The translations under genes and the position numbers were made by a program. Source: Lachnospirales bacterium (GTDB taxonomy: Bacteria; Bacillota; Clostridia; Lachnospirales; CAMZNU01). From it: 64,000 nt of DNA. Position 1 is the stretch's first letter. Every line of letters starts with the position of its first letter. The notes under the pieces were generated by a model. It was not told where the DNA came from, ran no database searches, and was given only the letters and a program-made list of their open reading frames with translations. Location: NCBI GenBank assembly GCA_047974375.1, contig JBKECF010000014.1, positions 1 through 64,000 on the forward strand, read 5' to 3'. Shown here in pieces: positions 3,878-50,470 of this stretch.

Positions 3878-4090
3878 AATCCTCTCCTTAAAATATAATT
3901 TTGTATATACAGAATTATACAAAACAAAACAAAAAATGTAAAGATATTTCTTAAAGAGTTAGTAAACATAGATTAACTTATTTTCATTAGGCTAGTTTAC
4001 ACCAAAAAGTATAACAATTTTATGGACTCATGAAAGGTTTATTTAATAATTTTTAGTTCAATATAAATTTTTTTTGTATAGTTAAAATAA

Positions 4091-4131
4091 TTAAAAAAAG
4101 ATATATAGATTATAGAATCAACATATCTTTT
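4091..4131 (-). terminator. Rho-independent terminator after the small Cys-protein gene
   Basis: Inverted repeat aaaagatat (4096-4104) / atatctttt (4123-4131) followed on the minus strand by a U-run (plus-strand A-run 4091-4099). Confidence 0.55.
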
Positions 4132-4138
4132 GTGATAG

Positions 4139-4435
4139 CTATGGAGTTTTTACAACATCTAATAAAAAGACATTTATAACATCTGGATCAGAGCAACAGA
4201 CGCGAATATCTCCATGCTCCTTGCCAGTTGGAATAGTACCACCATAGCGCAGAATATCAATATAAGGAAATAGGGTGTGCATTGCCATGGGGCAAAGCTT
4301 TCCGCGATCTTTATCAAAATCAAAAATATCTCCAATTTGATGCCCGCGATGGCATCCATACTTACCTTTACGTTCTACTAGCTTTATCTTTACTTGAGGC
4401 TTATTCAAATAGCATATCTCCTTTCTTTTTTTCAT
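4139..4435 (-). CDS. Small cysteine-containing conserved hypothetical protein (resembles the TIGR04076 family from memory)
   Basis: 98 aa with spaced Cys/His (GCHRGH, LCPMAMH, RVCCSDPD). Own terminator, monocistronic. Confidence 0.4.
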   Translation of the reverse strand: MKKRKEICYLNKPQVKIKLVERKGKYGCHRGHQIGDIFDFDKDRGKLCPMAMHTLFPYIDILRYGGTIPTGKEHGDIRVCCSDPDVINVFLLDVVKTP

Positions 4436-4545
4436 AGAATAACAGAAACTTTGAAACCTATATGTTGTATCAGCAACAAAGATGAGAATATTTTACTAAC
4501 AGATAAAAATCTATAGGTCTTTTACTTAAAAAGTAAAAGATAAAT

Positions 4546-9925: not shown

Positions 9926-11608
9926 CTAATTTGAAAATGCTGATTCATCATATGCTACTTGTAACAATTCAATATACCTATCTAAACCTACAGAATTTAA
10001 TTGAGATAGATAATTTTCCCAACCATCATCAATATTAATATCACCAGTAATAAATCTAACCAAAGCATCATTTTGATAGTCCATAACATTTGTTTTTACC
10101 AATGCCATTTCTTCAGCTGCATCAAGGCTTTGATACAAGTCAGGTAGCACTGATTCAAGAGGTTGTTTTACTTTTTCATGGTCTAGTGAGGATTTATACA
10201 TTAAAACCTGTCGTCCCGCAAGAGGCTTAACATCATCGCTGTATGGGTCTTGATTAGTTGTGGATGACACTGTATCTTTCGGGAGGCGCACTAGGCCTGA
10301 TAGCTGGTTCCAAGTTTGTCCTGTTGTATCAGAACCGGGAATCGAAGTTAATTCTGCTTGTAAACCATCTAGACCTAGTTCGCCTTCATTAGCTTTTCGC
10401 CAGTGTGTGCCCTCGATACCTGCAGCTGTTCGCAGCATTCCTTCATGTGTTGCTAATCCATCTATTAATCTAAATGCAGCCTCTGGATATCTTGAAGCAG
10501 AGGAAATAAATGTCATACCTGTTTGGTACATTGCATAAGGTGACCAAGCAGATATAGCAGTTCCGTCATTTCCTTCTAAAGGAGGAATTGATTGGTATTG
10601 TTCCCATTTTTTACTATTTGGTTCTGACGTAAGGTCGGCAGCATACCCTGGCCTTTGAGCTAAAAAAGCTCCTATTACTGTATAATCGCCGTTTTCATTA
10701 ATATTTACTTGATTATTTTTATCTTGAGTAAAGGATTCTGGATTAATTAATCCTTCTTTATATTTGTCTTGTGTAGGAGCAAAAATTATTTTACCATTAT
10801 CCACATATAGTTTATTAACTTCAGGTGTCAATTGAAATGGATTCATTAAAAAACCATCTATTTGTGTACCTGCTCCAGAAATAACTGTTGATAATGGAAT
10901 TTCATCATTAACATCTCCATTGCCATTGGCATCTTTTTCTTTGAACGCTTTCATTACTTCGTAAAATTCATCAATTGTTTTGGGGATTTCAAGTTCTAAA
11001 TTATTTAACCACTTAGTATTTAACCAAAGCTTATTGTTAAATTGTACATGGAGAGAACCGTCTACATTAGGCATATTATAAATATTACCGTCAGGAGTTG
11101 TTATATATTCACGCATGCCATCAAGTTCTTCAAAGGCTCGTTTATACCCGACACTAATTGTATCGTAATATTCATTTAAAGGGAGAATTAACCCCTGTGC
11201 ACCTAAAAGAGCTTCGCTAGATTTATCTAATCTAGAATTTTTACTTACACCAGTCATTATTATGTCTGTAACGTCACCAGAAGCAAACATCAAATTCATT
11301 TTACTTTTTATATCAGCATTGGGTGCAATCTGCCATTGAATTTTTATACCAGTTTTTTCTTCTAGTTCAATAGTTTGAGCATTTTCAGAACGATTATTTT
11401 CTCCATCATCTGGAGCAAATATAGATAGTGTTATTTCTTCGTTTACAATAGGCATTGAACCAGGTTCTGAATATAATTGTGATGTATTTACATCTTTATC
11501 ATTAGTGGATATATTATTATTTTCCCTAGTAGTACATCCATAGAATGTGGATGTTATTATTATAATAACTATAGCTAATGATGTCTTTAGGTTTCTTTTT
11601 TCTTTCAT
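9926..11608 (-). CDS. Extracellular solute-binding lipoprotein of a sugar ABC transporter (LplA/YesO-like, large SBP)
   Basis: The start was trimmed to the ATG at 11608 (MKEKRNLKTSLAIVIIIITSTFYGC, a lipobox), preceded by an AGGAGGA RBS. The tracked ORF runs 41 codons further into the repeat element. Confidence 0.8.
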   Translation of the reverse strand: MKEKRNLKTSLAIVIIIITSTFYGCTTRENNNISTNDKDVNTSQLYSEPGSMPIVNEEITLSIFAPDDGENNRSENAQTIELEEKTGIKIQWQIAPNADIKSKMNLMFASGDVTDIIMTGVSKNSRLDKSSEALLGAQGLILPLNEYYDTISVGYKRAFEELDGMREYITTPDGNIYNMPNVDGSLHVQFNNKLWLNTKWLNNLELEIPKTIDEFYEVMKAFKEKDANGNGDVNDEIPLSTVISGAGTQIDGFLMNPFQLTPEVNKLYVDNGKIIFAPTQDKYKEGLINPESFTQDKNNQVNINENGDYTVIGAFLAQRPGYAADLTSEPNSKKWEQYQSIPPLEGNDGTAISAWSPYAMYQTGMTFISSASRYPEAAFRLIDGLATHEGMLRTAAGIEGTHWRKANEGELGLDGLQAELTSIPGSDTTGQTWNQLSGLVRLPKDTVSSTTNQDPYSDDVKPLAGRQVLMYKSSLDHEKVKQPLESVLPDLYQSLDAAEEMALVKTNVMDYQNDALVRFITGDINIDDGWENYLSQLNSVGLDRYIELLQVAYDESAFSN

Positions 11609-11647
11609 AATGTCCTCCTTGTTTAAATAGTGGTATGTTTTATCGGT

Positions 11648-11915
11648 AAGAATTAGACTCATACCTTCAATGCTGGCATCTAAATTTTGCTTTAGGCAAA
11701 ACCAAACACTGTGAGTTTGGCAGCTGTTCATTGCTGTTTTACTCTGAATTTTTGTTTCACAAAAACCAAATGCTACGCATTTGTCTGATCGGAAGTTACA
11801 CTTCCTGCTCGACTATGCAACCAAGTCTGGTCGGAAGTTACACTTTCTGTTCGACTATGCAACCAAATTCGTCGCTCAGTTGGGGTACAGGCCTCCACTG
11901 ACGGATAGGCCTATT
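11648..11915. repeat. Copy A of a two-copy hairpin-rich ~270-bp element (contains a ~42-bp internal tandem duplication, 11789-11872)
   Basis: About 95% identical over a 125-nt core to 28501-28774. The core is a chain of six short perfect inverted repeats (ttttgc/gcaaaa, ccaaaca/tgtttgg, cagc/gctg, tttttgt/acaaaaa, aaatgc/gcattt, ggaagt/acttcc). Confidence 0.8.
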
Positions 11916-12165
11916 AACTTGTAGTTTAAAATTAAATGTTAATAATAATAACAACAAGGCACAATGAGTAAGGTATAGTTCTTTTCAGTACAAAAGACTA
12001 GGTGCATTTTATGTCATAGGTACAATATCTGTGGTTAGTATGCCGAAATATAATTTTAGTATATAATGTTGCTATGACACAGAACGCAAATTATAGTGTA
12101 TAGCCACAAAAAAATTAGTTTTTTAGAAATAAAATAAAGACAACTGATATTTACTGAGGTGAAAA

Positions 12166-14418
12166 ATGAAAAAAAGAAAATTTAAGTTTAAAAAGATATT
12201 TACGAATTTTTTAACATCCTACATTGTATTATTAATTGTACCAATTATTTTTATGTTTTTTTTATATAACGATACTGTAAAATTAAACACAAGAAGCACT
12301 ATAGATACTAAAATGGACATGCTTATACAAAGCAGTAATGAATTTGATAGTTTAATTAGCCAATTAGATGATATATCTATAGAACTAAATGACAGTTACA
12401 ATGTTAAATCTTTAGTATATATAGACAGTCCCAAGGCTGGTGATGAACATGTATACGACTTTTATTCTTTTAAGAGGTGGTTAACTAACAAATTATCTTT
12501 TTTACATAAAAATTTAGATTATTATGTTATGTTTAAAAAAAGCCAATCTATTTTTACATATAGTAGTATAAGTTATGGTTTTGAATTTAATTTTAATTCA
12601 TCAAGAAAATACAAAAAAACATCATATAAAGAATGGTATGATGAAAGTTTTAAAACAAGTAGTAGAAATTTTATTGAGCTACAGGAAATTGAGTTTGATA
12701 ATTATAATGAGAAATGTATTACATATAATTATCCTTTAAAATCGGCATATAATAACACAATTGGAGCTATTCAATTTATTATTAATAATAAATATTTAAA
12801 CAGAGTATTTGGTGGAATCGTAGACGACAACAACGGCTCGGTGTATATATTAAATGAGGATAAAAGTTTAATCGGCCAAATTGGCACAAATAATTATCAA
12901 TACATTAATTTTAATAAAGTAAATAATAATAATGGTCACTATTATACAAAAATAAACGGAATAAAAAATATTGCTATTTATTCAAAAAGTTCAAGTAAGG
13001 AACTGATTTATCTTATAACTATACCTGAACACGTACTACTTAAGGATGTAAATAAAATTAAATACTGGTCATTTTTTGCTATATTAACTTGTATTTTTCT
13101 AGAATTATTATTTGCATATTACTTAGCAAAAAAATATGCAACACCCTTAAGAAATATAGTTGTAAATTTGAAAAATATTTTTAAAGAGGAAGAAGTGTCG
13201 GATTATGAATATTTGGAAAATGGTGTTTCCAATTTGCTAGATACGAGAGTTAACATGGTTAATTCTTTGCAAAAAGAGGAAGAGAAATTCAGAAGATATT
13301 TTTTGGAAATGATTTTAGAAGGTAAATATAAAAGCGAAGAAGAAATTTATAAAATAGCAAATATAAATAAAATAAACTTGTTATTTACTTACTACGTTGT
13401 TGTTTGTATAAAAACAAAAGATGCAGCAAATTTAAATACTATAGTAGAAAAATATGAAGATGAATTTTTTTATTATGAAATTGATGAAGAAAATTTAATT
13501 TTACTTATATGTTCAAATAAAAGTATTAATTATTTTCAAGAATATTTAATTAATAAACTAGAGGAAATTAATAACACAAATTTTAGAAAAAACGGTGAGT
13601 GCTTAAAAATTGGTGTTGGTAATATTTATAAAGATATAGCAAATGCTTTTTTTTCAAAAAAACAAGCTATTTATTCGGCAAGGTACAGTTTATCAACAAC
13701 AACAGAAATAACAAGATATGAGAAAGTATCTACAGAGGTTCACTATATATATTATCCTCCAGAAATAGAAATTAAATTAATACATTATACGAAATATTAT
13801 GATATTGGGAATATAGAGAAAATATTTACTATTGTTAAGGAAGAAAATATTATTAAACGAAAATTATCTAGAGATTTTGAAAATATATTGTTTTCAAACA
13901 TAGAAGCAACTTTATTTAAAGTTTACGGAGAAGTAACAGCTGACGTGAATATGGATTCTTTAATTCAAAGATTTTATAAAGTTTCCGATTTTTCGGAAAA
14001 AATCAACTTAATAGAAAATGAATTTATAAAAATAGCAACTTATATTAATGATAAAAGACCTAATAACGAGGATGAATTTATAAATAATTGTAAAGAATAT
14101 ATTAAGGAACATTATGAAAATCCTCAATTATGTGTTGCACTAATTGCTGAACATTTTAAGCTTTCAGAATCATATTTTTCTCGTAGCTTTAAAAATAAAA
14201 TGGAAATACCTTTCAGTAATTATTTAGAAGTTATTCGGATGGAAAAAGCTAAAATATTAATAATAGAAAGTAATGAATCTATTGAGAATATAGCAACAAA
14301 AGTAGGGTACAATAGTAGTAGCTCATTTAGAAGAGCCTTTAAAAGAGTTGTAGGACTTTCACCTTCAAAATATAAAATTGAGGAGGATGGCAAAAGCATA
14401 ATGCCTATGAATAAATGA
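12166..14418 (+). CDS. Membrane-bound AraC-family transcriptional regulator (YesS-like)
   Basis: 750 aa with an N-terminal TM, an extracytoplasmic region, a second TM and a C-terminal AraC HTH (SSSSFRRAFKRVVGLSPSKY). Divergent from the sugar ABC operon. Confidence 0.7.
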   Translation: MKKRKFKFKKIFTNFLTSYIVLLIVPIIFMFFLYNDTVKLNTRSTIDTKMDMLIQSSNEFDSLISQLDDISIELNDSYNVKSLVYIDSPKAGDEHVYDFYSFKRWLTNKLSFLHKNLDYYVMFKKSQSIFTYSSISYGFEFNFNSSRKYKKTSYKEWYDESFKTSSRNFIELQEIEFDNYNEKCITYNYPLKSAYNNTIGAIQFIINNKYLNRVFGGIVDDNNGSVYILNEDKSLIGQIGTNNYQYINFNKVNNNNGHYYTKINGIKNIAIYSKSSSKELIYLITIPEHVLLKDVNKIKYWSFFAILTCIFLELLFAYYLAKKYATPLRNIVVNLKNIFKEEEVSDYEYLENGVSNLLDTRVNMVNSLQKEEEKFRRYFLEMILEGKYKSEEEIYKIANINKINLLFTYYVVVCIKTKDAANLNTIVEKYEDEFFYYEIDEENLILLICSNKSINYFQEYLINKLEEINNTNFRKNGECLKIGVGNIYKDIANAFFSKKQAIYSARYSLSTTTEITRYEKVSTEVHYIYYPPEIEIKLIHYTKYYDIGNIEKIFTIVKEENIIKRKLSRDFENILFSNIEATLFKVYGEVTADVNMDSLIQRFYKVSDFSEKINLIENEFIKIATYINDKRPNNEDEFINNCKEYIKEHYENPQLCVALIAEHFKLSESYFSRSFKNKMEIPFSNYLEVIRMEKAKILIIESNESIENIATKVGYNSSSSFRRAFKRVVGLSPSKYKIEEDGKSIMPMNK

Positions 14419-16091
14419 AAAAACTAAAAATTAAACAGCAAATTTTATTTTCTTTGGTATTTATAACATTTTTGTCTGTTACGTTACTAGGACTAATTGT
14501 ATACAATGTATCAAAAAAAACTATGATAAATCACTATATTGCTTCACAAAAACAAAATTTAGAAATATCAAACAATGTTTTAGATATGCAATTAAAAGAG
14601 GTAATTGACAACATAAGAAATGAACTTTTTAATGAAAATTTAATTTCTGTATTAAATTTTCATTACTCATCAAATATTGGTGAATTTTTAATGTCAGATA
14701 AATTTGCTTTACAAAGCTATGTGAAAGGAATAATTGAAGACCATAGTATAGTAGAAGGTATGTCTATTGTTTCAAAAGATGGAAAACGATTTTTTTATTA
14801 TAAAAGCGTGTTAAGTGGTAATTTAAATAAATTTTACTACAATAATGATATATTGAAGGCTCATTGGATAAAAGATACATACAATGCCCAAGGAAGAGAG
14901 GTTTTTTATCCAAATGACATTTTGCAAGACAAAAATGCACCATATTTTTCCATGTCCAAAAAGATAATTAATCCAAATAACCAAAAGTTTTTAGGATATA
15001 TGGTAGTTACCTTTAAAAAAGATATGTTTAAGGATACTTTTGGCAGGAAAAAACTAGCTGAAAGTAAAGACTCTGTGCTAATTTTAAATAATAAAGAAAT
15101 TGTATTTGAAGATAAAAAACTTGATAACATATTGGACTTTATTAATGGCAGTAGAGAGAAGTATATATATTCTTCCTACTATAACGTAACGACAGGCTGG
15201 GAATTATATAATATTATTAGTTTATCTAGTTTAAATGATGAATTAAATAACATAAAAGCAGGAGTTATAATGGCTGCTGTGTTGCTCTTAGTTGTTAGCA
15301 TTATTTTATCTAATATAATAGCGAGTACAATAAACACTCCACTTAAAGAGCTAGAAGTATCTATTGAAAAAATAGGCATTGGTGATCGCCAAATACAAAT
15401 GAATTTCGATAATAGTGAAATAGGATTAATTGGTCAAAAATTTCAAAGTATGGTGCGAACAAACATTGAACTAAAAGAAGATATTTTATCTAAGGAAATA
15501 AATGAAAAAGAAGCTCAATTATTACTATTACATGCACAAATCAACTCGCATTTTTTATATAATACTTTAGATTCAATATATTGTATGGCTATAATAGATG
15601 ACAATAATGACATTGCTAATATGGTTGAGGCATTAGCTAATGTATTTAGATTTAGTTTAAATAAAGGTGAAAAAGAAATTTCTATTGCTGATGAAATAGA
15701 TTTTATTAAAAATTATATAAGGATACAAAATATTAGATACAAAAATAGATTTTCTCTTTTAATTAATGTAGATAAAAATTTATATAGCAGAAAAATTATA
15801 AGATTTTTAATACAACCATTTGTGGAAAATGCAATGTACCATGGTCTTGAACCTAAAGTTGGTAAGGGTGAGCTGCATATTATTATAAAACCCTCCAAAG
15901 ACGGTGTAAGTATTACCGTAAAAGATAATGGCGTTGGAGTGGAAAATATAGATGTATTTTATAGCGGTTATGGTGTTAAAAATATTAAAGAAAGATTAGA
16001 ATTATATTATAAAAATAAATACGAACTTACATTTGAAAGTAAAAAAAATGTTGGCACAAAAGTAAATATTGTGATTCCTTTAGAAAGTTGA
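14415..16091 (+). CDS. Sensor histidine kinase, YesM/LytS-like (His_kinase + HATPase_c)
   Basis: Two TM segments flank a sensor domain, followed by a HAQINSHFLYNTL H-box and an ATPase domain (VKDNGVGV). The start overlaps the stop of the upstream gene. Confidence 0.8.
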   Translation: MKKLKIKQQILFSLVFITFLSVTLLGLIVYNVSKKTMINHYIASQKQNLEISNNVLDMQLKEVIDNIRNELFNENLISVLNFHYSSNIGEFLMSDKFALQSYVKGIIEDHSIVEGMSIVSKDGKRFFYYKSVLSGNLNKFYYNNDILKAHWIKDTYNAQGREVFYPNDILQDKNAPYFSMSKKIINPNNQKFLGYMVVTFKKDMFKDTFGRKKLAESKDSVLILNNKEIVFEDKKLDNILDFINGSREKYIYSSYYNVTTGWELYNIISLSSLNDELNNIKAGVIMAAVLLLVVSIILSNIIASTINTPLKELEVSIEKIGIGDRQIQMNFDNSEIGLIGQKFQSMVRTNIELKEDILSKEINEKEAQLLLLHAQINSHFLYNTLDSIYCMAIIDDNNDIANMVEALANVFRFSLNKGEKEISIADEIDFIKNYIRIQNIRYKNRFSLLINVDKNLYSRKIIRFLIQPFVENAMYHGLEPKVGKGELHIIIKPSKDGVSITVKDNGVGVENIDVFYSGYGVKNIKERLELYYKNKYELTFESKKNVGTKVNIVIPLES

Positions 16092-16098
16092 ATATAAA

Positions 16099-17142
16099 AT
16101 GAAAAAAATTGTAGTAGTAGATGACGAGTTACTTGTAATTGAAGCAATTGGCAAAATTATAAAGAAAACGGAAGAAGCATATGAAGTTGTAGGCAGTGCA
16201 AATTCAGGCAAGGAGGCTTTGGATGTTATAAAGGAATATAAACCAGATGTGGTTATAACAGATATTCGAATGCCTGGAATTACTGGATTGGATTTAATTA
16301 AAAAAGTTAAATTAATAGACACTAATATACTATTTGTAATAATTAGTGCCTATGAGGAATTTGCCTATGCTAAAGAAGCTATAGAGCTAGGAGTAGTTGA
16401 TTATATAAGCAAACCAATTACAGTAAGCAAATTAAAAAGTGCATTAGAAACTTGTAATAAAAAGTATAAAAACTTGCAAATAAATACGGCGGAAAATTTT
16501 GTTAAAATTCTAAATAAAAAAGCAGAGGAAATTGTAAATTGTATAGATAAAGAGCAACTAATGTTAGTTCCTTTAATAAGTGAAACAGCGGATCTAATTA
16601 GCAAATACACAACAGAGTTAAATATGTATAAAAGTGAGGTATATAAAATTTTATGCCTTTGTACAAGTAAATATTTTGAAAAATATAACATAAATGATTG
16701 TGAAAAAAACTTCCCATCTATATCAAATTTAGACATTTTAAGCAGTGTAAGCGAGGTTAACGAGTATACTTTGGTTTATATAACACGCCTAGCTGGTAAA
16801 GTACAAGCAAGAATTAATGGTATAACTCATATAGTAATTGTAAATATATTAAATGATATAAATGTAAATTACGCCGAGGATATGGGTCTTAATGAATATG
16901 CATTAAAGTATAGTTTAAATCCAAATTACTTAAGTTCACTTTTTAAAGAGGAAGTAGGAGAAACTTTTACAAAGTATGTCACTAAAATTAGAATAGAAAA
17001 AGCTAAAATAATGTTAAAAAAAGGTTATAAAATTGGTAAAGTAAGTACAATGGTAGGGTATATGAACTATAGATATTTCTCGGAGATTTTTAAAAGAGAA
17101 GTGGGAATGAGCCCGAAAGAATATAAAGGCTTGAAAAACTGA
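16099..17142 (+). CDS. Response regulator with AraC-type HTH output (YesN-like)
   Basis: N-terminal receiver (VVDDE ... D ... K) and C-terminal AraC HTH (MNYRYFSEIFKREVGMSPKEY). Confidence 0.85.
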   Translation: MKKIVVVDDELLVIEAIGKIIKKTEEAYEVVGSANSGKEALDVIKEYKPDVVITDIRMPGITGLDLIKKVKLIDTNILFVIISAYEEFAYAKEAIELGVVDYISKPITVSKLKSALETCNKKYKNLQINTAENFVKILNKKAEEIVNCIDKEQLMLVPLISETADLISKYTTELNMYKSEVYKILCLCTSKYFEKYNINDCEKNFPSISNLDILSSVSEVNEYTLVYITRLAGKVQARINGITHIVIVNILNDINVNYAEDMGLNEYALKYSLNPNYLSSLFKEEVGETFTKYVTKIRIEKAKIMLKKGYKIGKVSTMVGYMNYRYFSEIFKREVGMSPKEYKGLKN

Positions 17143-17257
17143 AAATAGCATTTATATTTTAAGTAATTGCAAATTCACTTCTTGCAAAATGCTTCGTTGC
17201 TATTTATGCATATATATGCTAACATAATTGCATATAATAGTTGTGAAAGAAGGAAAA

Positions 17258-17755
17258 ATGTTAACATTAGCAATTGTACTTACAGTTATATATATAATAA
17301 AAGTAATTATTTCATTAGTCGGCTTAGATAGTGATATAGATTTTATAGACTTTGAAGAAATTAGTTTTTTATCCATAAGTCTAGATGGTTTATTAGCGAT
17401 GGCAACTTTTTTCTGTTGGTCCATGGTTCTTACTTCCCAAGGAATTGAAAATACTATTATTGTAGTAGTAATATCAATTATTAATGCATTAGCCTTTGGT
17501 TTTATTTATGGTAAGATTACTGAGTTAATTTTAAGTATAGCTAAACCAGAAGTTAAATATATATTACCGAAAATAGGTGATACATGTAAAGTGGATTATA
17601 CTTTACAAAATGGTGCACAATGTATATTTATTATAGGAAATGAAAGGTACGATTATAAAGTTCATACTAACGATAAAATACAAAGTGGTGATATACTTGA
17701 AGTAACAAGTATATCAGATATACACAACATTTTAGGTAAAAAAACCGAAAATTGA
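17258..17755 (+). CDS. NfeD-like membrane protein (YuaF-like, partner of flotillin)
   Basis: Two TM helices plus a C-terminal OB-fold-like beta domain. It lies immediately upstream of flotillin, as in the yuaF-floT arrangement. Start trimmed to the ATG at 17258 with an AGAAGGA RBS. Confidence 0.55.
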   Translation: MLTLAIVLTVIYIIKVIISLVGLDSDIDFIDFEEISFLSISLDGLLAMATFFCWSMVLTSQGIENTIIVVVISIINALAFGFIYGKITELILSIAKPEVKYILPKIGDTCKVDYTLQNGAQCIFIIGNERYDYKVHTNDKIQSGDILEVTSISDIHNILGKKTEN

Positions 17756-17768
17756 TAGGAGGATTTAT

Positions 17769-19331
17769 ATGTTTACAAATACTTTAATAACAATAGCTGT
17801 AGTGTTCATTTTATGTTTATTAATTATTTTATTAAGTAGATATAAAAAATGTAGAAGTAACGAGTTGCTTGTAGTTTACGGTACATCTAAAGATAAGGCA
17901 GCTAAAGTAATACATGGCGGCGGTGCGTTTATATTGCATGTTATTCAAGGTTACGGTTATATGTCCCTTAAGCCATTAGCAATAAGCATTACCTTATCGT
18001 AAGCTATAGCAAATAATGGTATACCACTTAACGTAAAGTCAAATTTTACTGTTGCTATTGGAAATTCTCCCGAACTACTAAATTCAGCAGCAGTTAAATT
18101 ATTCGGTAGAGAAGAATCGGAAATAATTTCCGATGCAAGAGATGCCATAACTGGACCATTAAGAGCAAGTATAGCGTCAATGACTGTGGAAGATATTATT
18201 AGAAATAGAAATAAATTTTTACAAACAATAAACGAAAATGTCACAGACGACTTGGCTAAATTAGGTTTAGAAATAATTACAACAAATGTAGAACAAATTA
18301 CAGATGATGCAGACTATATTAACAATATGGGTAGAGAGGCAGCATCTCGTGCTCAGGCTGAGGCAGATGTAAAAGTAGCCGAACAAGATAAAATAGGTCA
18401 ATCAGGCGCAGCAGAGCACACAAGAGCAAAGGAAATAAAAGTTGCTCACGAAGCATCCATTATGGAACAAGGTAAACAGGAAGCTCTTAAGGAAAAAGAA
18501 ATTAGAATAGCAGAAATGAATTCTGAAAGAGAAGTAAGAGTAGCAGAAGAAGCATCTAAACAATCTCAAGGTAAACAAAAAGCTATTAATGAGCAAGAAA
18601 TAAGAATTGCAGAAATGAATGCAGAGAAAATATCTATAGAAAATTTAGCTAGAACAAAGGCAGCTACATCTGAAGCTGAGTATCTTACTAAAAAAGCTGA
18701 ATTGGATAAAGCATCGAGAGTTGCTCAAGCAAGAGCTAATAGAGATATTTTAGAGGCTGAAAAGGAAGAAGAACTAGCTAAACTTAGTAAACAACAAATT
18801 GTACAACAAGAAATTGAAAAACAAAAAGCAGTAATAGAAGCTGAAGCAAAAGCAGCAACAGTTATTGCTGAGGCAAGAGCAGAAGCTGAAACCATAGAAC
18901 TTAAAGCGAGAGCAAAGGCCGAGGCTATTGCATTAACAGCAAAAGCACAATCGGAAGCATATAGTAACATGGTTGAATCAGTAGGCGGCAATATAAACGC
19001 GCTTATTGAATTAACTTTAGTTGAACATGCTGAAAAATTAGCTGAGATAAATGGACAAACTATAGCATCACTAAAACCAGACCAAGTTATGATTTGGGGT
19101 GGTGGTGGTGGTGACGGTAATAATGTAAGTGGCTATGTTGATGATATGTTAAAGTCATTGCCTGCTTATAGTGAACTTTGGAAAATGGCTGGCAAAAAAA
19201 TGCCTGATTGGTTAATTAGCGAAAAGGATGAAGAAACAAAAACAGAGGAAATCAAAACTGAAGTAAAAGTTGAAGCACCTGTCGAAGTTCCCATAAAAGA
19301 AATAAGCGAGAAAATAGTAGAAAATGCATAA
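17769..19331 (+). pseudogene. floT: Flotillin (SPFH/band-7, FloT/YuaG-like) interrupted by one in-frame TAA at 18000-18002
   Basis: ORFs 17769-18002 and 18180-19331 are in the same frame. The intervening 18003-18179 translates without a stop into conserved SPFH sequence (AIANNGIPLNVKSNFTVAIGNSPELL...). The C-terminus is Ala/Glu/Lys-rich coiled coil. Confidence 0.7.
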
Positions 19332-19333
19332 AT

Positions 19334-19386
19334 AAAACGGAGCTGTCATGAAATAGATTGATTCTATTTTAGGACAGCTCCGTTTT
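19334..19386. terminator. Bidirectional terminator between the convergent flotillin and exonuclease genes
   Basis: 14-bp perfect inverted repeat aaaacggagctgtc / gacagctccgtttt with A/T runs on both flanks. The loop itself contains the inner inverted repeat aatagat/tctatt. Confidence 0.7.
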
Positions 19387-19453
19387 AATAATATTGGGGT
19401 GTATAGGGATTATTATTTCACTTTTTTATTATTATATCTTTCCTTTGCATTTA

Positions 19454-20194
19454 TTAATCATTTTTTTTATTAAAATATTTATTCATGCCAAGGAAATAAA
19501 TGTTTTTAATAACTTTTTGAGTTTTTTTGCCTAAGGGTTTGCCAAATTCCTTTTCTGCATACTTATATAAGCTACCTAAGTCTACGGTTTTGTTGGTAAC
19601 TTTTTGTTTTTTATGCGGATTATATGTATTATGGTTTAAAGGTTGTTTGGATAAAGATTTTAATAATTTACCTGTATATTTTGCATCATTAAGTGCATTA
19701 TGAAAACTATTGTCAATATTAATATTTAATTCTCTTATAGCATTTTCTAGTCCAATAACCTGTCCTTTTGGTAATTTTAAATTTTTGCTAATTAATGATT
19801 GTACATCAATATAATTTGTTGGTAATAAATTTATATCGATATCATAAAATTCCGCATTATTAAACAACAATTTAACGTCATTTTTTCCCCATACGCATAA
19901 GATAGATTCATCATCAACAAAGTCTAAAAATTCAGGAAATATTTCTTGAAAACTCCGGCTGTCTTTGAAAGTCTCATCGGTAAAATGAGTAATTTTTTTT
20001 ACATATGGATGTAGTTTTTTATATATTTGTGGTTTAATAAATAAACTTAGTTCATCTATATATTCAAATTTATTATTATATTTTATAGCGCCAATTTGTA
20101 TTATTTCGAATTTGCATTGAGGATTTGGTATTTTATTTTTTTTATCAAATGGAAAAGCTTGATTAAATTCTAAATCAATTATAATATAGTTCAC
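19454..20194 (-). CDS. DEDDh 3'-5' exonuclease (DnaQ-like; KapD-like)
   Basis: N-terminal IIDLEFNQ Exo I motif, with HNALNDA near the C-terminus (Exo III), 246 aa. Confidence 0.6.
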   Translation of the reverse strand: MNYIIIDLEFNQAFPFDKKNKIPNPQCKFEIIQIGAIKYNNKFEYIDELSLFIKPQIYKKLHPYVKKITHFTDETFKDSRSFQEIFPEFLDFVDDESILCVWGKNDVKLLFNNAEFYDIDINLLPTNYIDVQSLISKNLKLPKGQVIGLENAIRELNINIDNSFHNALNDAKYTGKLLKSLSKQPLNHNTYNPHKKQKVTNKTVDLGSLYKYAEKEFGKPLGKKTQKVIKNIYFLGMNKYFNKKND

Positions 20195-20357
20195 GATATT
20201 CTCCTTTAAGTATTTTTTTTAATTATATTAGAAAAATAGAAAAATTAAAAGTTATTACAATAATTATTCCCTTTATTAGTAGTTTTAAAAATAACAGGAA
20301 ATATATTTATGTGAAAAATATTTTATGGTAAAATCATTTTAAAGAAGGAGGATGTTT

Positions 20358-22001
20358 ATGGGAATAGATTTTTTAATAAACAATAAACTAAATGGCTCTA
20401 CCAATTTAAAAGAAGGTGTAAGGGAAAACGCTAAATTAGTAGAGGGCAAAAATATTACTTCCATAGCCGAAGGGAAAACAACTGGGGAGGTGTTAGATGT
20501 AAGTAATTCTATAGCTAAAATACTAACTAGTAGTGGACAAATTGTAAATGGACAACTTAGTAATCCGACTCAGCTAAATATAGGAGATATAAGAAATTTT
20601 ATAATTAACCAAAATGCTAACGGCTCATATACATTTAATATAGTTCAAGAAGACGAGGGGAAGTTACTATTAGATACGCTAACAAAGGCACTTAAAGACT
20701 TAGGCTTAACTCCTACAGAAAAAAATATATCAATAGCTAAAGAACTAATTAAAAATAGTTTACCTTTAAATAATAGTCAATTTAAGGACATGAGCAGGGC
20801 GATGGCTTTGCTAGGCGACAGTTGTGGTGAAAAATCGGCATTCCTTCTTAAAAATGAAATACCACTCAACACAAAAAATGCAAATATCTTCACTGAATAT
20901 GTTAATAAAACATTTTCAGTACTGAATGAAATAAATTCCTTAGAATCGGCAATTAAAAGTATGACAGATTCTAGTACAAAAAGTAAAATATTAGATATAT
21001 TAATTGGTTCTAAAAATATTAACAGTGGCATTGTGAAAGATATACTGCCAAAGGAAACAGTTTCAGCCCATACTAACCAAAGAAGTTCTTCGCAAATTTT
21101 AAACTCTGAGGTGAATTTGAAGCAAGATTCAGTATCAACCAAAGAAAATAGTTCAGTAACTAATTTAGTAAAAGAAAATTATACTAAAGAGAATAGTCAT
21201 TCAAATATTGCTCCAAAAGGCAATGAATTAACTAAAGTTAATGTTAATAATCAAGATTCAAATAAAACTATTCTAAATGACAGCATTAAGGGTGGAAGTA
21301 CTGAACCAGCTAATGTTTTAAAAAATATATCTGAAACAATAATTAAAAATACGGATTTAGAAGATACATCAAAAGCTAGTCCCGAAAAAAGCGATAGTGT
21401 AAATAATAAAAGTAACGAAACATTTAATAAACTGAAATTTGACCCAACAAATACAACCATTAAGGATTTAGAAAAATTCACAAAAGATTTTAGTAATAAA
21501 ATAGAAAGAATTATAGAAGAATTAAAAGATAGCGGTGATGAAAGTTCTCAAAAAGTATTGGAGCAAGCTACATCATTTAAAGAAAGACTGGACTTTAATA
21601 ACTTGCTAAAAGAGAATTTTTATGCTCAAATACCTATAAGCGTAAATAATAGTCAGAAAAACACTGAGTTGCTAGTTTTTAAAGATAAAAACAAAAAGAA
21701 AACTAATGGAGGGAGTGCATCAGCGATAATAGGCCTTGATACACTGAACCTAGGTAGATTTGAAACTTATGTAGAACGAATAGAAAATAATATAACGTTG
21801 CAATTTAGGCTTGAAAATAATGATATAATAGATTTAGTAAAATCTAATTTAAATAAGCTAGATAACTTACTTAAGGAAAAAAATTTGTACATTAATAATG
21901 TTGCATACAAAAATACTAAGGAAAGCTTTACAATTATGTCAAAAAATGAAGACGAAATTGAAATTAAATCAAATAATATTAGATTAGACGTGAGGATGTA
22001 A
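20358..22001 (+). CDS. Hypothetical Asn/Ser/Lys-rich protein with a FliK (Flg_hook)-like C-terminal domain
   Basis: The last ~90 aa (LNLGRFETYVERIENNITLQFRLENNDIIDLVKSNLNKLDNLLKEKNLYINNV) match the pattern of the FliK C-terminal domain. The rest is low complexity. Start taken at the second ATG (20358), 6 nt after the AAGGAGG RBS. Confidence 0.35.
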   Translation: MGIDFLINNKLNGSTNLKEGVRENAKLVEGKNITSIAEGKTTGEVLDVSNSIAKILTSSGQIVNGQLSNPTQLNIGDIRNFIINQNANGSYTFNIVQEDEGKLLLDTLTKALKDLGLTPTEKNISIAKELIKNSLPLNNSQFKDMSRAMALLGDSCGEKSAFLLKNEIPLNTKNANIFTEYVNKTFSVLNEINSLESAIKSMTDSSTKSKILDILIGSKNINSGIVKDILPKETVSAHTNQRSSSQILNSEVNLKQDSVSTKENSSVTNLVKENYTKENSHSNIAPKGNELTKVNVNNQDSNKTILNDSIKGGSTEPANVLKNISETIIKNTDLEDTSKASPEKSDSVNNKSNETFNKLKFDPTNTTIKDLEKFTKDFSNKIERIIEELKDSGDESSQKVLEQATSFKERLDFNNLLKENFYAQIPISVNNSQKNTELLVFKDKNKKKTNGGSASAIIGLDTLNLGRFETYVERIENNITLQFRLENNDIIDLVKSNLNKLDNLLKEKNLYINNVAYKNTKESFTIMSKNEDEIEIKSNNIRLDVRM

Positions 22002-22003
22002 AA

Positions 22004-23272
22004 ATGGAAATAAACGAACTTATAGAATTTATAAATGAAAGTCCAACTATTTTTCAAACTGTAAATAATTTGGCAAATATCCTAAGTAAAAGTGGATACA
22101 GAGAAATTAAAGAAAATGAAAAATTTCAGTTAAAAAATAAAGAAAAGTTTTTTATTCGTAAAAGTAATAACATGTTAATAGCTTTCGATATAGAAAAAGA
22201 TTTACTTAAAGATGGCATGAAAATAGTTGGAAGTCATGGGGATGCACCTAGTTTTAAAATAAAGCCAAATCCATTGTGGGATAAGTCTGGATATATGTCA
22301 ATAAATGTTGAAAGCTATGGTGGTTCAATACTTAGTACTTGGTTTGATAGAGCTCTTAGTGTAGCTGGAAAGGTCATAGTAAATAACAATGGAGAAACTG
22401 ATTGCCGACTAGTGGACGTAAAAAAAGCTGTATTGACAATACCTAGTTTAGCTATTCATTTAAACAGGAAAGTAAATGATGGTTATAAATTTAATAAACA
22501 GGATGAAATGCAACCTATTTGCGGATTATTAGAAGGTGGAAAAGATTTTGATGACTTTTTACATTTTATTTCTAAAGAACTTAATGTAAATAAAGGTGAT
22601 ATTTTAGATTTCGAACTTTATTTGTATGATAAAAGCATTGGTGAAGTAATTGGCATAAATAACGACTTTTTACAGTCTAGTCGTTTAGACGACTTAGTAA
22701 TGACATATAGTTCATTAGTTTCTTTTATAAATTGTAATGGCAGGTCTAAGGCATTAATATGTGCAGATAATGAAGAGGTTGGCTCTGTATCTTTTGGAGG
22801 TGCTACATCATCTTTTATAGAGAATACCCTAGAAAGAATTTTCCTAAGTTATGGAATGAATAAAGAAGATTTTTTAATTGGAATAAGTAATTCCATTGTT
22901 ATATCTGCAGATGTAGCTCACGGAGTTCATCCTAATTATGGTGATAAACATGACCCAACTAACAGACCTATGTTAGGTAAAGGAATTGTTATTAAATACA
23001 GTGCAAATCAAAGTTATAGTACAAGTTCAGAGTTTAGCAGTAAGCTTAAGCTAGCTTGTAAAAAACGAAAGGTAGCCTATCAAGATTATGTTAATCATTC
23101 TAATATAATTGGAGGAAGTACTATTGGCCCAAGGCTTTCAAGTAAATTAGGAATACCAGCAATTGACCTGGGCATTCCTTTACTAGGTATGCATTCAATT
23201 AGAGAACTTTGTGCAATAACAGATATAGATAATGCTGTAGAAGCTTTTAATGCTTTTTATGAAGTGGTGTAA
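22004..23272 (+). CDS. M18-family aminopeptidase (aspartyl aminopeptidase-like)
   Basis: 422 aa with GSHGDAPSF, HLNR and DVAHGVHPNYGDKHD motifs of M18/M42 dinuclear-zinc aminopeptidases. Confidence 0.75.
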   Translation: MEINELIEFINESPTIFQTVNNLANILSKSGYREIKENEKFQLKNKEKFFIRKSNNMLIAFDIEKDLLKDGMKIVGSHGDAPSFKIKPNPLWDKSGYMSINVESYGGSILSTWFDRALSVAGKVIVNNNGETDCRLVDVKKAVLTIPSLAIHLNRKVNDGYKFNKQDEMQPICGLLEGGKDFDDFLHFISKELNVNKGDILDFELYLYDKSIGEVIGINNDFLQSSRLDDLVMTYSSLVSFINCNGRSKALICADNEEVGSVSFGGATSSFIENTLERIFLSYGMNKEDFLIGISNSIVISADVAHGVHPNYGDKHDPTNRPMLGKGIVIKYSANQSYSTSSEFSSKLKLACKKRKVAYQDYVNHSNIIGGSTIGPRLSSKLGIPAIDLGIPLLGMHSIRELCAITDIDNAVEAFNAFYEVV

Positions 23273-23274
23273 AA

Positions 23275-24213
23275 ATGAATTGGTTAGAATGCAAAATATA
23301 TACAACCCATTATGGAGTGGAAATAGTAACAGGTCTATTAATAAACGTCGGAATTAATGGCATGCAAATTGAAGACGAACATGACTTCCAAGAGTTTATA
23401 GAGAACAAAACATGGGATTATGCAGATGAGGATTTTCTAAATAGAAAAATACCAGAATCCATTGTGACTTTCTATATAGAAGATTCCATTTATGGCAATG
23501 AAACTTTTATTAGCGTTAAAAATTCTATGCACAATCAGACGGAATTAGTTAATGCTAGAATTGAAATTAGAAATATAAATGAAAACGAGTGGGTTAATAA
23601 TTGGAAAAAATATTATAAACCCTTTAAAATTAATAATATAGTTATAAAACCACAATGGGAAGATTATACAAAAAGCAAAGAAGAAATAGTATTTACCATT
23701 GAGCCGGGTAACGCCTTTGGAACTGGGTTACACCATACAACAGCCCTTTGCATTGGAGAAATAGAAAATTATGTCAATTCAAATACAGAGGTATTAGATT
23801 TAGGATGTGGCAGTGGTATACTTTCTGTTATATCTCTTTTATGTGGAGCAAAAGAAGCAACAGCAATAGACATTGAGGACATAGCAATAAAGTCAGCTAG
23901 AAATAATGCTTACCTTAATAAAGTAAATAATTTGTACCAAGGTATATGTGGTAATGTGTTAGATGATGAAGAATTAGTTAATAACATAAGTAGTAAAAAA
24001 TATAATTTAATATTTGCTAATATTATTGCAGATGTTATTATACCTATAACGCCATTAGTCGAAAATTTAATTTCCGACGATGGTATTTATATAACATCGG
24101 GAATAATCGATCATAGAGTTGAAGACGTAAAAAATGTTTTAAATAAAAAATTCAGAATAATTAAACATGTTGAAAAAGAAGGTTGGCACATGTTTGTAGC
24201 TAGAAAGGAATAG
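23275..24213 (+). CDS. prmA: Ribosomal protein L11 methyltransferase
   Basis: GTGLHHTT and SAM motif LDLGCGSGILS. Conserved prmA-rsmE pair. Confidence 0.85.
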   Translation: MNWLECKIYTTHYGVEIVTGLLINVGINGMQIEDEHDFQEFIENKTWDYADEDFLNRKIPESIVTFYIEDSIYGNETFISVKNSMHNQTELVNARIEIRNINENEWVNNWKKYYKPFKINNIVIKPQWEDYTKSKEEIVFTIEPGNAFGTGLHHTTALCIGEIENYVNSNTEVLDLGCGSGILSVISLLCGAKEATAIDIEDIAIKSARNNAYLNKVNNLYQGICGNVLDDEELVNNISSKKYNLIFANIIADVIIPITPLVENLISDDGIYITSGIIDHRVEDVKNVLNKKFRIIKHVEKEGWHMFVARKE

Positions 24214-24214
24214 T

Positions 24215-24913
24215 ATGCCGAAATTTTTTGCTGATAATGAAGTATGTAACGACTATATTGAGTTAGTAGACGAGGCGAAACATATACAAGTTTTACGTTA
24301 TAAAGTAGGCGATGAAATTATAATTGGTGACGGAAAAGGATACGACTATATATGTACAATTGAAAAAATAGAAAAAAACAAAGTAATATCTAGGATTAAT
24401 GTTAAAAATAAATGTTTAAGCGAACCGGATGTAAGTATAACTCTTTTTCAAGCTTTGCCAAAATCAAGTAAAATGGAAAATATAATTACTCAAAACATAG
24501 AAATGGGGGTGAAAGAAATTGTTCCCATAGAAACGAAATTTACAATCGCCAAATCTAAAGATAATAAAATTGATAGATGGCAAAAAATAGCCGAAAGTAG
24601 TAGCAAACAATCTATGAGGGGAATTATACCGAAAATACATAAAACTATATCTTTAAAGGAATCGTTGGAGTATAATGATTTTGACTTAAAAATTGTAGCT
24701 TATGAAAAAGAAAAAAATCTTCGTATAATTGATGTCTTAAACAAAAATATAAAGAAGATAGCTTTATACATCGGTAGTGAAGGTGGTTTTTCGCTAGATG
24801 AAATAGAATTGTTCAAGGAAAATAATTTTAAAATAATAACACTAGGCGAAAGAATACTACGTACAGAAACTGCAGGTATAGCATGTACAAGTGTAATAGT
24901 TAATATAACTTAA
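24215..24913 (+). CDS. rsmE: 16S rRNA (uracil1498-N3)-methyltransferase
   Basis: 232 aa RsmE-like (PUA-like N-terminus, SPOUT C-terminus), directly downstream of prmA. Confidence 0.8.
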   Translation: MPKFFADNEVCNDYIELVDEAKHIQVLRYKVGDEIIIGDGKGYDYICTIEKIEKNKVISRINVKNKCLSEPDVSITLFQALPKSSKMENIITQNIEMGVKEIVPIETKFTIAKSKDNKIDRWQKIAESSSKQSMRGIIPKIHKTISLKESLEYNDFDLKIVAYEKEKNLRIIDVLNKNIKKIALYIGSEGGFSLDEIELFKENNFKIITLGERILRTETAGIACTSVIVNIT

Positions 24914-24932
24914 AGAATGAATGGTGGTTTAA

Positions 24933-25205
24933 TTGATTAAATACGAAATTAATGAATTTATTGATCTTATTGAAGAGGAACTAAGAGTTTACGAACATCT
25001 GTCGGAAGATGAAATTGATGATTGGAAACATATTTTTTTACAGCTTGTTGACGAAAATAAAGTTAGTAAGCAAAATTTGGCAAAAGAGGGCGGAATATTT
25101 TATTTTAAAATTGAGGACGAAATGGAAATTTTTTCAATAGTTGATGACTATTCATTTGCTATAGAAAATAACTCCCTGAAAGATTATTGGGATAGTTTTT
25201 ATTAA
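24933..25205 (+). CDS. Small acidic hypothetical protein
   Basis: 90 aa with a TTG start and a weak RBS. No recognisable domain. Confidence 0.3.
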   Translation: MIKYEINEFIDLIEEELRVYEHLSEDEIDDWKHIFLQLVDENKVSKQNLAKEGGIFYFKIEDEMEIFSIVDDYSFAIENNSLKDYWDSFY

Positions 25206-25218
25206 AAAGGAGTTTATC

Positions 25219-25695
25219 ATGAAAATTCAAAGTTTTACCGTAGATCACGATAAATTATTACCTGGAGTTTATGTTTCTAGAAAAGATAATGTTGGCAATC
25301 ACGTTGTAACTACATTCGACATAAGAATGAAAATACCTAATAAAGAGCCTGTATTAGATAACCCAGCTATACATACATTAGAACATCTAATCGCAACATA
25401 TTTACGCACACAAGAAAACCCTTTTATAGATAAAATAATTTATTTTGGCCCAATGGGTTGTAGAACAGGTATGTACCTAATAGTAACAGGTGATTACGAT
25501 TCAATAGACGTGCTTGAGTTAGTTAAGTCAATGTATAAATTTGTTATTGATTTTCAAGGTGATTTACCAGGAAATACTTCCATCGAGTGTGGAAATTACT
25601 TAGACCATAATATAACAACTGCAAAGTGGGAAGCAGCTAAATATATGGGTGTATTAAATACAGCTAAGGAAATGAACTTAGTATATCCGAATTAG
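25219..25695 (+). CDS. luxS: S-ribosylhomocysteine lyase (autoinducer-2 synthase)
   Basis: HTLEHL metal-binding motif and conserved Cys (GCRTGMY), 158 aa. Confidence 0.9.
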   Translation: MKIQSFTVDHDKLLPGVYVSRKDNVGNHVVTTFDIRMKIPNKEPVLDNPAIHTLEHLIATYLRTQENPFIDKIIYFGPMGCRTGMYLIVTGDYDSIDVLELVKSMYKFVIDFQGDLPGNTSIECGNYLDHNITTAKWEAAKYMGVLNTAKEMNLVYPN

Positions 25696-25704
25696 GGAGA
25701 TAAA

Positions 25705-26511: not shown

Positions 26512-26550
26512 ATAGTACTTGATTTTATTTTATATCAATGGGAGGGGATT

Positions 26551-27009
26551 ATGATTATACGGAGGTATGAAGAAAGTGATTGTAAGGAGATTATTGAACT
26601 TTTTAACAATACAGTTCATATAGTTAACGCAAAAGACTATACAAAAAAGCAACTAGATGTTTGGACTTGCAATGCAAACATAGGGGAATGGAATAAATCT
26701 TTTATGAATAACTATACTTTGGTAGCTTTATATGATAGTAAAATAGTAGGTTTTGGTGATATAACAGAAACAGGGTATTTAGATAGATTGTATGTTCATA
26801 AAAATTATCAAGGCAAAGGAATTGCAACAGCATTATGTGATGAACTAGAAAAATTTGTTGAGTACAAAAGCATAAAAACTCATGCATCAATAACGGCAAA
26901 AAAATTTTTTATAAAAAAAGGATATAAAATAATTAAGGAACAGGAAGTTCAACGTAATAGCGTATTTCTAAAAAATTATATTATGGAAAAGGATATTAAG
27001 ATAGATTGA
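26551..27009 (+). CDS. GNAT-family N-acetyltransferase
   Basis: Acetyl-CoA-binding motif (YVHKNYQGKGIATAL), 152 aa. Confidence 0.7.
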   Translation: MIIRRYEESDCKEIIELFNNTVHIVNAKDYTKKQLDVWTCNANIGEWNKSFMNNYTLVALYDSKIVGFGDITETGYLDRLYVHKNYQGKGIATALCDELEKFVEYKSIKTHASITAKKFFIKKGYKIIKEQEVQRNSVFLKNYIMEKDIKID

Positions 27010-27033
27010 CGCTAAAATAGAGGAGTGTTAAAG

Positions 27034-27543: not shown

Positions 27544-27613
27544 TTAAACTTATGGTTAAACTGTACCCTAACCATAGTGAATTCAATGTAGAATTTATGG
27601 TTAGGGCTATTTA

Positions 27614-50461: not shown

Positions 50462-50470
50462 AGTATGTAG

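Follow-up and report, generated by a model that had tools for sequence, protein, structure and literature searches.

A 64,000-nucleotide (nt) stretch of contig JBKECF010000014.1, from an NCBI metagenome-assembled genome (MAG) labelled Lachnospirales bacterium and representing a poorly sampled host, was analysed as a whole and is called the window below. It carries two copies of a non-coding element of about 270 nt containing a chain of short perfect hairpins. The reading that we favour, with moderate confidence, is that the element is a member of an undescribed family of small, non-coding, non-autonomous interspersed repeats of this genome, resembling the BOX and BIME elements. The feature is real and statistically solid, its sequence family is novel and its kind is already known. 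Its plan would comprise a conserved left module made of two diverged 64-nt hairpin units, a variable tandem or inserted middle and a conserved right module, with the two element ends pairing with each other.

A first description of this DNA, made from the sequence alone (the sequence-only reading), had reported a repeat of ~270 bp in the same orientation at 11648-11915 and 28501-28774, and the alignment of the two copies confirmed these coordinates:

Copy A of the element, 11648-11915: 268 nt, 42.5% G+C, delimited by alignment to copy B and by G+C content.
Copy B of the element, 28501-28774: 274 nt, 42.7% G+C, delimited by alignment to copy A.
Right-end block, 11867-11915 in copy A and 28720-28774 in copy B: ~74% identical in the alignment, with the terminus ATAGG(C/T)CTATT.

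The copies have the same orientation and lie 16.8 kb apart. A repeat finder gave an ungapped block of 144 nt, 94% identical (11667-11810, corresponding to 28519-28662), and BLASTN aligned the two copies over 165 nt with 91.5% identity (E 3e-62), followed by a separate right-end block of ~70 nt at 74%. The identity ends abruptly on both sides, where the flanks are AT-rich and unrelated, including the regions of the ribosome-binding sites (RBS); a short motif, TTTWATYGR, adjoining the element, is common to the two left flanks. The element starts with TAAGAATTAGAC and ends with ATAGGYCTATT. With a G+C content of ~43% per copy against 29.7% in the whole window, the copies are the only non-coding G+C-rich islands in the listed intergenic gaps, two T-box leaders aside. 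The ungapped block contains nine substitutions, six of which are inside a 125-nt core; 61 nt of this core (11715-11775) are shared by the copies. The claim that every difference between the copies falls in a loop or linker holds for this core, but not outside it, where there are many substitutions and indels: substitutions at 11675, 11679 and 11682, a divergent stretch at 11660-11672, a 41-nt insert in copy B and an additional 42-nt unit in copy A.

The six consecutive hairpins reported previously are all present in copy A as perfect inverted repeats:

H1, 11685-11690 with 11696-11701: perfect inverted repeat.
H2, 11702-11707 with 11715-11720: perfect inverted repeat.
H3, 11721-11724 with 11733-11736: perfect inverted repeat.
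H4, 11749-11755 with 11759-11765: perfect inverted repeat.
H5, 11767-11773 with 11777-11783: perfect inverted repeat.
H6, 11791-11796 with 11800-11805: perfect inverted repeat.

Stems of at least 6 bp (6-7 bp) occur five times in 127 nt, while 5000 shuffles averaged 0.13 and never exceeded 2. The six core substitutions already listed by the sequence-only reading (11694, 11713, 11714, 11776, 11788 and 11808) were recovered, and none of them is inside a minimal stem; compared with random placement this avoidance has P = 0.006, or 0.014 when the adjacent GA/AT change is counted as one event, in a test that is post hoc, since the stems were defined with both copies already seen. H2 had been given a 7-bp stem (ccaaaca/tgtttgg), which exists in copy B but not in copy A, as the substitution at 11714 makes or breaks the seventh pair. 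The loops described as GAAA-type are in fact a CGAAA pentaloop and a GAA triloop, and GNRA tetraloops were rejected, the loops having 3 or 5 nt and no closing pair for a tetraloop. All 36 stem pairs of the six hairpins are Watson-Crick, with zero G-U; the structure is therefore strand-symmetric and fits folded RNA and single-stranded DNA alike.

The hairpins are distributed over two adjacent units:

64-nt unit 1, 11680-11743 in copy A and 28532-28595 in copy B: carries H1 (11685-11701), H2 (11702-11720) and H3 (11721-11736).
64-nt unit 2, 11744-11807 in copy A and 28596-28659 in copy B: carries H4 (11749-11765), H5 (11767-11783) and H6 (11791-11805).

The core is an old tandem internal duplication of the 64-nt unit, in which H1 and H2 correspond to H4 and H5. 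Within copy B, 28532-28571 and 28596-28635 form a direct repeat of 40 nt, 73% identical at a spacing of 64, and H1/H4 and H2/H5 are the only paralogous pairs among the six hairpins. When the four units, two per copy, were aligned, 4 of the 14 pairs proved to differ on both sides between unit 1 and unit 2 in a compensatory way (G-C to T-A, C-G to G-C, C-G to T-A and A-T to G-C), and 96% of the aligned cells pair, against 29-54% after sliding the 3' partner by 1-3 columns. Since the pairs of H1+H2 and H4+H5 have been kept by compensation through ~27% divergence, the hairpins are maintained and not accidental; the compensated pairs are the strongest evidence that the hairpins matter, and they mark the short perfect palindromes as the functional core of the element. 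The compensatory pairs, of which four distinguish the internal paralogous units and one the two copies, are all Watson-Crick, and for this reason they support DNA hairpins equally. A degenerate CRISPR array, considered for the 64-nt periodicity, was rejected, as its 'spacers' would not differ from one copy to the other and the units are palindromes.

The middle of the element is modular, with two tandem 42-nt units in copy A and one interrupted unit in copy B:

Two tandem 42-nt units of copy A, 11783-11866 (11783-11824 and 11825-11866): 93% identical.
Insert specific to copy B, 28663-28703: 41 nt, splitting the single 42-nt unit of this copy, as indicated by the alignment and by short direct repeats.

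Each 42-nt unit of copy A contains the hairpin GGAAGT-TAC-ACTT(C/T)C and TCGACTATGCAACCAA. In the insert of copy B, the stretches AACTTTGCTTT and TTTATTGCTG resemble the core sequence of H1 and H3.

Folding gave z-scores of -3.4 and -3.1 for the minus strand of the two copies, and of -2.1 and -2.2 for the plus strand. The long-range pairing enclosing the variable middle is as follows:

Predicted long-range helix, 11784-11879, both strands (RNAalifold): 4 bp; in copy A CTGA (11784-11787) pairs with TCAG (11876-11879), in copy B CTGG with CCAG.

Its last pair is A-T in copy A and G-C in copy B, which compensates the substitution at 11788; this covariation, one pair from two sequences, is weak evidence for the predicted helix. 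A 9-bp long-range helix in the minimum free energy (MFE) fold of copy B (GCUUGUACC/GGUGCAAGC) has three uncompensated mismatches in copy A, and the other long-range helices of the MFE folds are not common to both copies. The element ends are able to pair over 7 bp, perfectly in copy B and in degraded form in copy A. The weakly inverted termini of the sequence-only reading correspond to an inverted match of 7-9 nt (AATTAGACC/AGGTCTATT in copy B, perfect as TAGACCT/AGGTCTA; AATTAGACT/AGGCCTATT in copy A), but this match is degraded in copy A and is subterminal, the homology between the copies reaching ~5-10 nt past it on both sides. As for a target-site duplication, ATTGA / TTTAAT is found on both sides of copy B and no matching direct repeat at copy A; the match at copy B may be due to chance, because the flanks are AT-rich. 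With weak inverted repeats, no consistent target duplication and no partner transposase in the window, the element is not a demonstrated MITE (miniature transposable element with inverted repeats).

To evaluate the copy number, the Logan contigs of SRR30067258, which derive from a de Bruijn graph (k=31) where each 31-mer occurs once (PMC12424806), were compared at their breakpoints with a k=31 graph of the window alone:

End of contig _3547: observed at 11744, predicted at 11744.
Start of contig _130: observed at 11804, predicted at 11746.
End of contig _130: observed at 28595, predicted at 28596.
Start of contig _23885: observed at 28630, predicted at 28598.

Three of the four contig ends are discordant with the two-copy prediction. 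A discordant end implies another sequence in the sample that has a 30-mer in common with the element and then diverges, and in a graph model one hypothetical added copy reproduced all three of them. Since the modelled copy would in addition interrupt the left contig ahead of the observed 11744, the real variant has to depart from copy A somewhere left of 11714. The simplest reading of the breakpoints is that at least one further copy is present elsewhere in the genome, and the element had probably been undercounted when it was described as two-copy.

The two copies precede the following genes:

Gene downstream of copy A, 9926-11608, minus strand: solute-binding lipoprotein (SBP_bac_1, by Pfam), first gene of an ABC permease/apiosidase-like operon.
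Gene downstream of copy B, 27614-28456, minus strand: DUF368 (PF04018) membrane protein.

Copy A is located in a 557-nt divergent intergenic region between the SBP_bac_1 (hereafter SBP) gene and an AraC-type sensor with a two-component system, and copy B in a 535-nt divergent region between the DUF368 gene and a pyridine-nucleotide disulphide oxidoreductase gene. The distance from the element end to the annotated ATG measures 39 nt for copy A and 44 nt for copy B, in agreement with the ~45 nt upstream of a minus-strand start codon estimated before. The minus-strand promoter-like sites of a promoter scan are upstream of the element, while the element itself and the interval up to the genes have none; an outward promoter inside the element was found neither by the scan nor by eye. 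Since the candidate promoters lie on one side of the element and the RBS on the other, both 5' untranslated regions most likely include it, and it would be co-transcribed into the leaders of the SBP and DUF368 genes, together with two weak terminator-like modules. One of these is listed here:

Terminator-like hairpin (H5), 11767-11783 in copy A and 28619-28635 in copy B, minus strand, from a terminator scan: CAAATGC-GTA-GCATTTG followed by GTTTTTGTG.

The scan matched the minus strand of both copies, with CAAATGC(G/A)TAGCATTTG plus GTTTTTGTG and a 7-bp stem having just 3 G-C pairs; on the same strand the paralogous H2 is likewise followed by TTTTGC. A small open reading frame (ORF) or leader peptide was rejected, because the two copies do not agree in the length and frame of their ORFs, which lack an RBS. 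We suggest that the copies were recently spread or copied, as their 94% identity would indicate, into promoter-proximal intergenic DNA, and that co-transcription would give the SBP and DUF368 genes long 5' leaders with a tight fold. Two hairpins of this minus-strand transcript would then each be followed by a U-run (CCAAAC..GUUUGG-UUUUGC and CAAAUGC..GCAUUUG-GUUUUUGUG), and the likely side effect would be a partial attenuation of transcription and/or a changed mRNA stability of the downstream gene, rather than ligand-specific control.

The start codons of both genes deserve a comment. An ATG inside copy A (11731, minus strand) opens a stretch, 11609-11731, in frame with the SBP gene, producing a spurious 601-aa ORF, and the Logan gene call on contig _3547 extends the same protein to 605 aa, up to the contig end. 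The SBP start is thus misjudged by gene callers because the repeat carries an in-frame ATG; the real start is at 11608, with an AAGGAGG RBS. In the DUF368 gene, the annotated ATG at 28456 seems too far downstream (28457-28486, minus strand), as 5 of 5 aligned homologues start 5-10 residues earlier; the in-frame L-F before the annotated Met is invariant in the homologues, and no ATG, GTG or TTG is found in frame. From the sequence, the real start may be an ATT at ~28477, ~22 nt from the element, with AAAGGGG before it at good spacing. The DUF368 N-terminus would reflect either such a non-canonical start or a truncation upon the arrival of the element.

Genes for a two-component system, RNase T, an M18 peptidase, PrmA, an RNA methyltransferase (PF04452), LuxS and acetyltransferases occupy the 16.8 kb between the copies, a housekeeping block that homologous recombination between the two direct copies (11648-28774) would delete or duplicate. 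A genomic island with attL and attR was rejected in view of the housekeeping interior and of the missing integrase, and an att site derived from a tRNA or tmRNA was rejected as well, neither gene being present in the window.

Relatives of the element were searched for in several collections. Rfam 15 at gathering thresholds found two T-boxes elsewhere in the window and none in the element, and a search with its covariance models (CM) at E<=10, on both strands of both copies with their flanks, gave no match inside the element, in line with the sequence-only reading, which could assign it to no RNA family known to it. BLASTN with copy A (word size 11) had no match among PLSDB plasmids and INPHARED phages. 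The exact pattern TTGGCAGCTGTTCATTGCTG gave 0 matches in IMG/VR and GTDB genomes; GTTTCACAAAAACCAAATGC gave 6 in JGI metagenomes, each merely 20-34 nt long and due to chance; GGAAGTTACACTTCCTG and TCGACTATGCARCCAAAT gave chance matches in IMG/VR, the 31 of the latter being one phage gene in related contigs; and TCGGAAGTTACACTTYCTG gave 3 in GTDB genomes, from unrelated phyla and presumed to be chance. A degenerate pattern made from the internally conserved columns, GAATTTTNNTTTNNNNAAAACCAAA, yielded 5 chance matches in IMG/VR, all below 18 bits by the unit model. The translation of the longest element ORF (81 aa), compared with a protein collection in which spurious calls in other copies might appear, returned no candidate. 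A 20-mer of the window itself had 0 matches in the genome collection, so that the host MAG is outside it and the remaining contigs of the MAG were not covered. A covariance model of the 42-column hairpin unit, run on the window and on the loci of relatives, retrieved the four known units only; the best non-self match (25070-25115, minus strand, 16.2 bits, E ~0.07), in or beside a 90-aa ORF at 24933-25205, is probably a chance match.

Outside the window, the DUF368 protein turned up only in the Logan assembly of SRR30067258; the homologue that comes next has 62% identity. In this nearest homologue (P0003, locus L044) the 309-nt AT-rich upstream region has no BLASTN or CM match to the element, an absence that is a weak test because the relatives are distant. 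The contig of a second DUF368 relative (L045) starts 95 nt before the gene, and its apparent similarity to the gene-proximal end of the element was no better than that of shuffles.

The sequence-only reading had considered a leader RNA and a REP-like repeat equally possible; both are kept here, but not as equals, since the evidence favours the repeat. Several lines of evidence led us to this preference: near-identical copies, with 94% identity extending to loops and linkers, precede functionally unrelated genes, a sugar-type SBP and a DUF368 membrane protein; the nearest DUF368 homologue has no element upstream; the middle is modular, with a variable tandem unit; the hairpins are strand-symmetric; the breakpoints suggest at least one more copy; and no Rfam family matches. 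The G+C island, the hairpin density, the internal duplication, the upstream promoters and the BOX-like plan further support an interspersed repeat. On the other hand, a number of observations weigh against it. The same orientation and the near-equal distance of both copies from the start codon are unexpected for random insertion, with n = 2. The 64-kb window contains no transposase, integrase, reverse transcriptase, RAYT, Y1 transposase or TnpB. Two copies are directly seen, and the third comes from contig ends, which strain variants of copy A or B could mimic; the Logan contig does depart from the window by a 22-nt indel elsewhere. No relative was present in any collection searched, and dispersal is thus unproven. 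A consistent target-site duplication is lacking, and the terminal inverted repeat is both weak and subterminal. Lastly, the avoidance of stems by substitutions (P ~0.006-0.014, post hoc) also fits a functional RNA.

Among the known systems, the BOX elements of Streptococcus pneumoniae, modular as boxA - boxB(n) - boxC, with folded transcripts and co-transcription (Croucher et al. 2011, PMC3049150), resemble the element in organisation, a likeness judged on plan and not on sequence. Both are small, non-coding and intergenic, with conserved end modules around a variable tandem middle of units of roughly 40-45 nt, and both fold tightly, the middle folding independently of the ends. BOX is often upstream of co-transcribed genes, as predicted for the element, and in both the evidence of target duplication is ambiguous. 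The BOX-like plan is found here as a left part of 165 nt at 91.5% identity, a right part of ~70 nt at 74% and a variable tandem middle. The differences are in the host (Streptococcus against Lachnospirales), in the left module of the element, itself a duplicated pair of hairpin units, in the number of copies (>100 against 2, probably at least 3) and in the lack of a candidate mobilising insertion sequence for the element.

The REP sequences of enterobacteria and pseudomonads and their BIME arrays share with the element arrays of short palindromes, kept in both by compensatory change, that are extragenic, G+C-rich relative to their surroundings and separated by short conserved linkers. They differ in that one REP is repeated in alternating orientation, whereas six unlike palindromes form the element; a repeated single palindrome and a RAYT, which would identify REP/BIME, are not found in the window. 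REPs, moreover, usually occupy gene 3' ends or the gaps between the genes of an operon, and not a site directly ahead of an RBS. Prokaryotic MITEs (Correia, ERIC, RUP and bcr1, reviewed in PMC10969869) are, like the element, 100-300 nt long, non-coding, highly base-paired and intergenic, and can attenuate or alter expression if co-transcribed, and the terminator-like repeat SPRITE (PMC3049150) has, as here, a hairpin plus a U-rich tract. The element departs from MITEs in its weak, subterminal inverted repeats, in the absence of a consistent target duplication and in being G+C-rich and not AT-rich relative to the genome.

The T-box leaders of the window, both at the Rfam gathering level, offer a further comparison:

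T-box leader, 37003-37208, plus strand: 119 bits, directly upstream of a leucyl-tRNA synthetase gene (37258-39657).
T-box leader, 62691-62912, plus strand: 108 bits, preceding an ORF that runs off the window end.

They resemble the element in their position in a 5' leader, in forming a G+C-rich structured island in an AT-rich genome and in having a terminator-like hairpin. They match Rfam, whereas the element does not, its copies being 94% identical and absent from the nearest orthologous locus.

The first alternative to be considered is a dedicated cis-regulatory 5' leader RNA on the minus strand, either an attenuator or a protein- or ligand-binding leader, in which the two hairpin and U-run modules act as regulated terminators and the SBP operon and the DUF368 gene form a small regulon. 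We regard it as unlikely. The location is what such a leader would require, with both copies in the same orientation, 22-44 nt before start codons and between candidate promoters and RBS; the terminator-like hairpins are on the minus strand only, where the fold z-scores are also stronger. Structured RNAs in AT-rich genomes typically have a high G+C content, as the element has, and an RNA would also be expected to show compensatory changes from one internal unit to the other and core substitutions placed outside the stems. The identity of 94%, loops and linkers included, instead points to recent copying and not to the long-term conservation of a common aptamer, in front of two genes unrelated in function, and the nearest DUF368 homologue is not preceded by the element. 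Furthermore, 0 of the 36 hairpin pairs are G-U, a strand symmetry as in DNA palindromes; the element tolerates a variable tandem middle as well as a 41-nt insert; the copies do not have the predicted long-range helices in common; no Rfam model matches; and the terminator stems, 7 bp with 3 G-C pairs, are weak. A somewhat more speculative version, to which we give slightly less credit, is a new class of structured RNA, a modular minus-strand leader made of a hairpin array, whose tandem hairpin and U-run units would be regulated attenuators or a docking platform for an RNA-binding protein, coupling the sugar-uptake operon to the DUF368-family gene.

Lower still in our estimate is a multi-copy small RNA gene with its own promoter, on either strand, found by chance in divergent promoter regions. 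The compact stable fold with paired ends in copy B, the AT-rich -10-like boxes just beyond the right end of this copy and the hairpin and U-run motifs, which could be its terminators, would suit such a gene. No promoter-like site is conserved at an equal position in both copies, however, and the terminator-like hairpin is in the middle of the element and not at its end; the copies differ in length and middle content, and the Rfam, plasmid, phage, genome and metagenome searches gave no homologue. Equally improbable, in our opinion, is that recombination or gene conversion copied the regulatory region of one gene before another in a single segmental event, with neither mobility nor a family. Just two copies are directly observed, 16.8 kb apart, direct and at equivalent positions with respect to start codons, and no family members were present elsewhere in the collections searched; against this, the contig breakpoints call for at least one more variant, the element has an internal duplication and a tandem-module structure, and the flanks, RBS regions included, are unrelated.

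The least probable is that the element is the decayed end-to-end derivative of a transposon relying on hairpins (a PATE of the IS200/IS605 type or an array of the REP/RAYT type), its hairpins being recognition sites in single-stranded DNA and possibly a retained scaffold similar to a TnpB guide RNA: the perfect, strand-symmetric hairpins kept by compensation, the TTTWATYGR adjoining both copies on the left, their same orientation and the lack of terminal inverted repeats and target duplication, neither of which is expected in this type of transposition, would agree with it, but the window has no Y1 transposase, RAYT or TnpB, the left-end and right-end hairpins are unlike, no Rfam family matches on either strand, and with two copies it is inseparable from an interspersed repeat, of which it is a sub-case.

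If the element is indeed an interspersed repeat, it would add a new family to the few modular hairpin-built ones of Firmicutes (BOX, RUP, SPRITE and bcr); to our knowledge, none has been described in this uncultured gut-type clostridial lineage. Such repeats break short-read assemblies, as in Logan here, seed recombination and alter the expression of their neighbours when co-transcribed, and the internal duplication, with four pairs compensated, offers a small and clear illustration of how hairpins are maintained. The value is mainly one of annotation, and the element is a candidate for surveys of structured non-coding DNA or RNA in Lachnospirales MAGs; it opens no long-standing question.

Some minor observations were made elsewhere in the window. 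Of the other G+C-rich intergenic gaps, one at ~17770-18000 is coding and corresponds to the 5' part of a flotillin/Band_7-like gene. At ~17813 (between 17756 and 18179; ~6010 in L043) the Logan contig and the window differ in a 22-nt unit, ATGTTTATTAATTATTTTATTA, present twice in tandem in the Logan contig and once in the window, which shifts the frame in this 5' part. In both assemblies the 5' part appears split from the main ORF (18180-19331), and the Logan calls are of 165, 30, 63 and 383 aa; the length difference may reflect a tandem repeat of variable length, a pseudogene or a discrepancy between assemblies. A G+C-rich island at ~4140-4430 (minus strand), in the gap 3923-4545, contains by eye a small coding gene of <100 aa with an RBS, below the ORF cut-off of the gene map (100 aa). 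Finally, the 1335 nt at 50418-51752, upstream of an Opp-type permease/ATPase operon (51753-55607), contain short ORFs only (<=89 aa on both strands); the solute-binding-protein gene expected there is absent, and the region may be a degraded or lost OppA-type gene.

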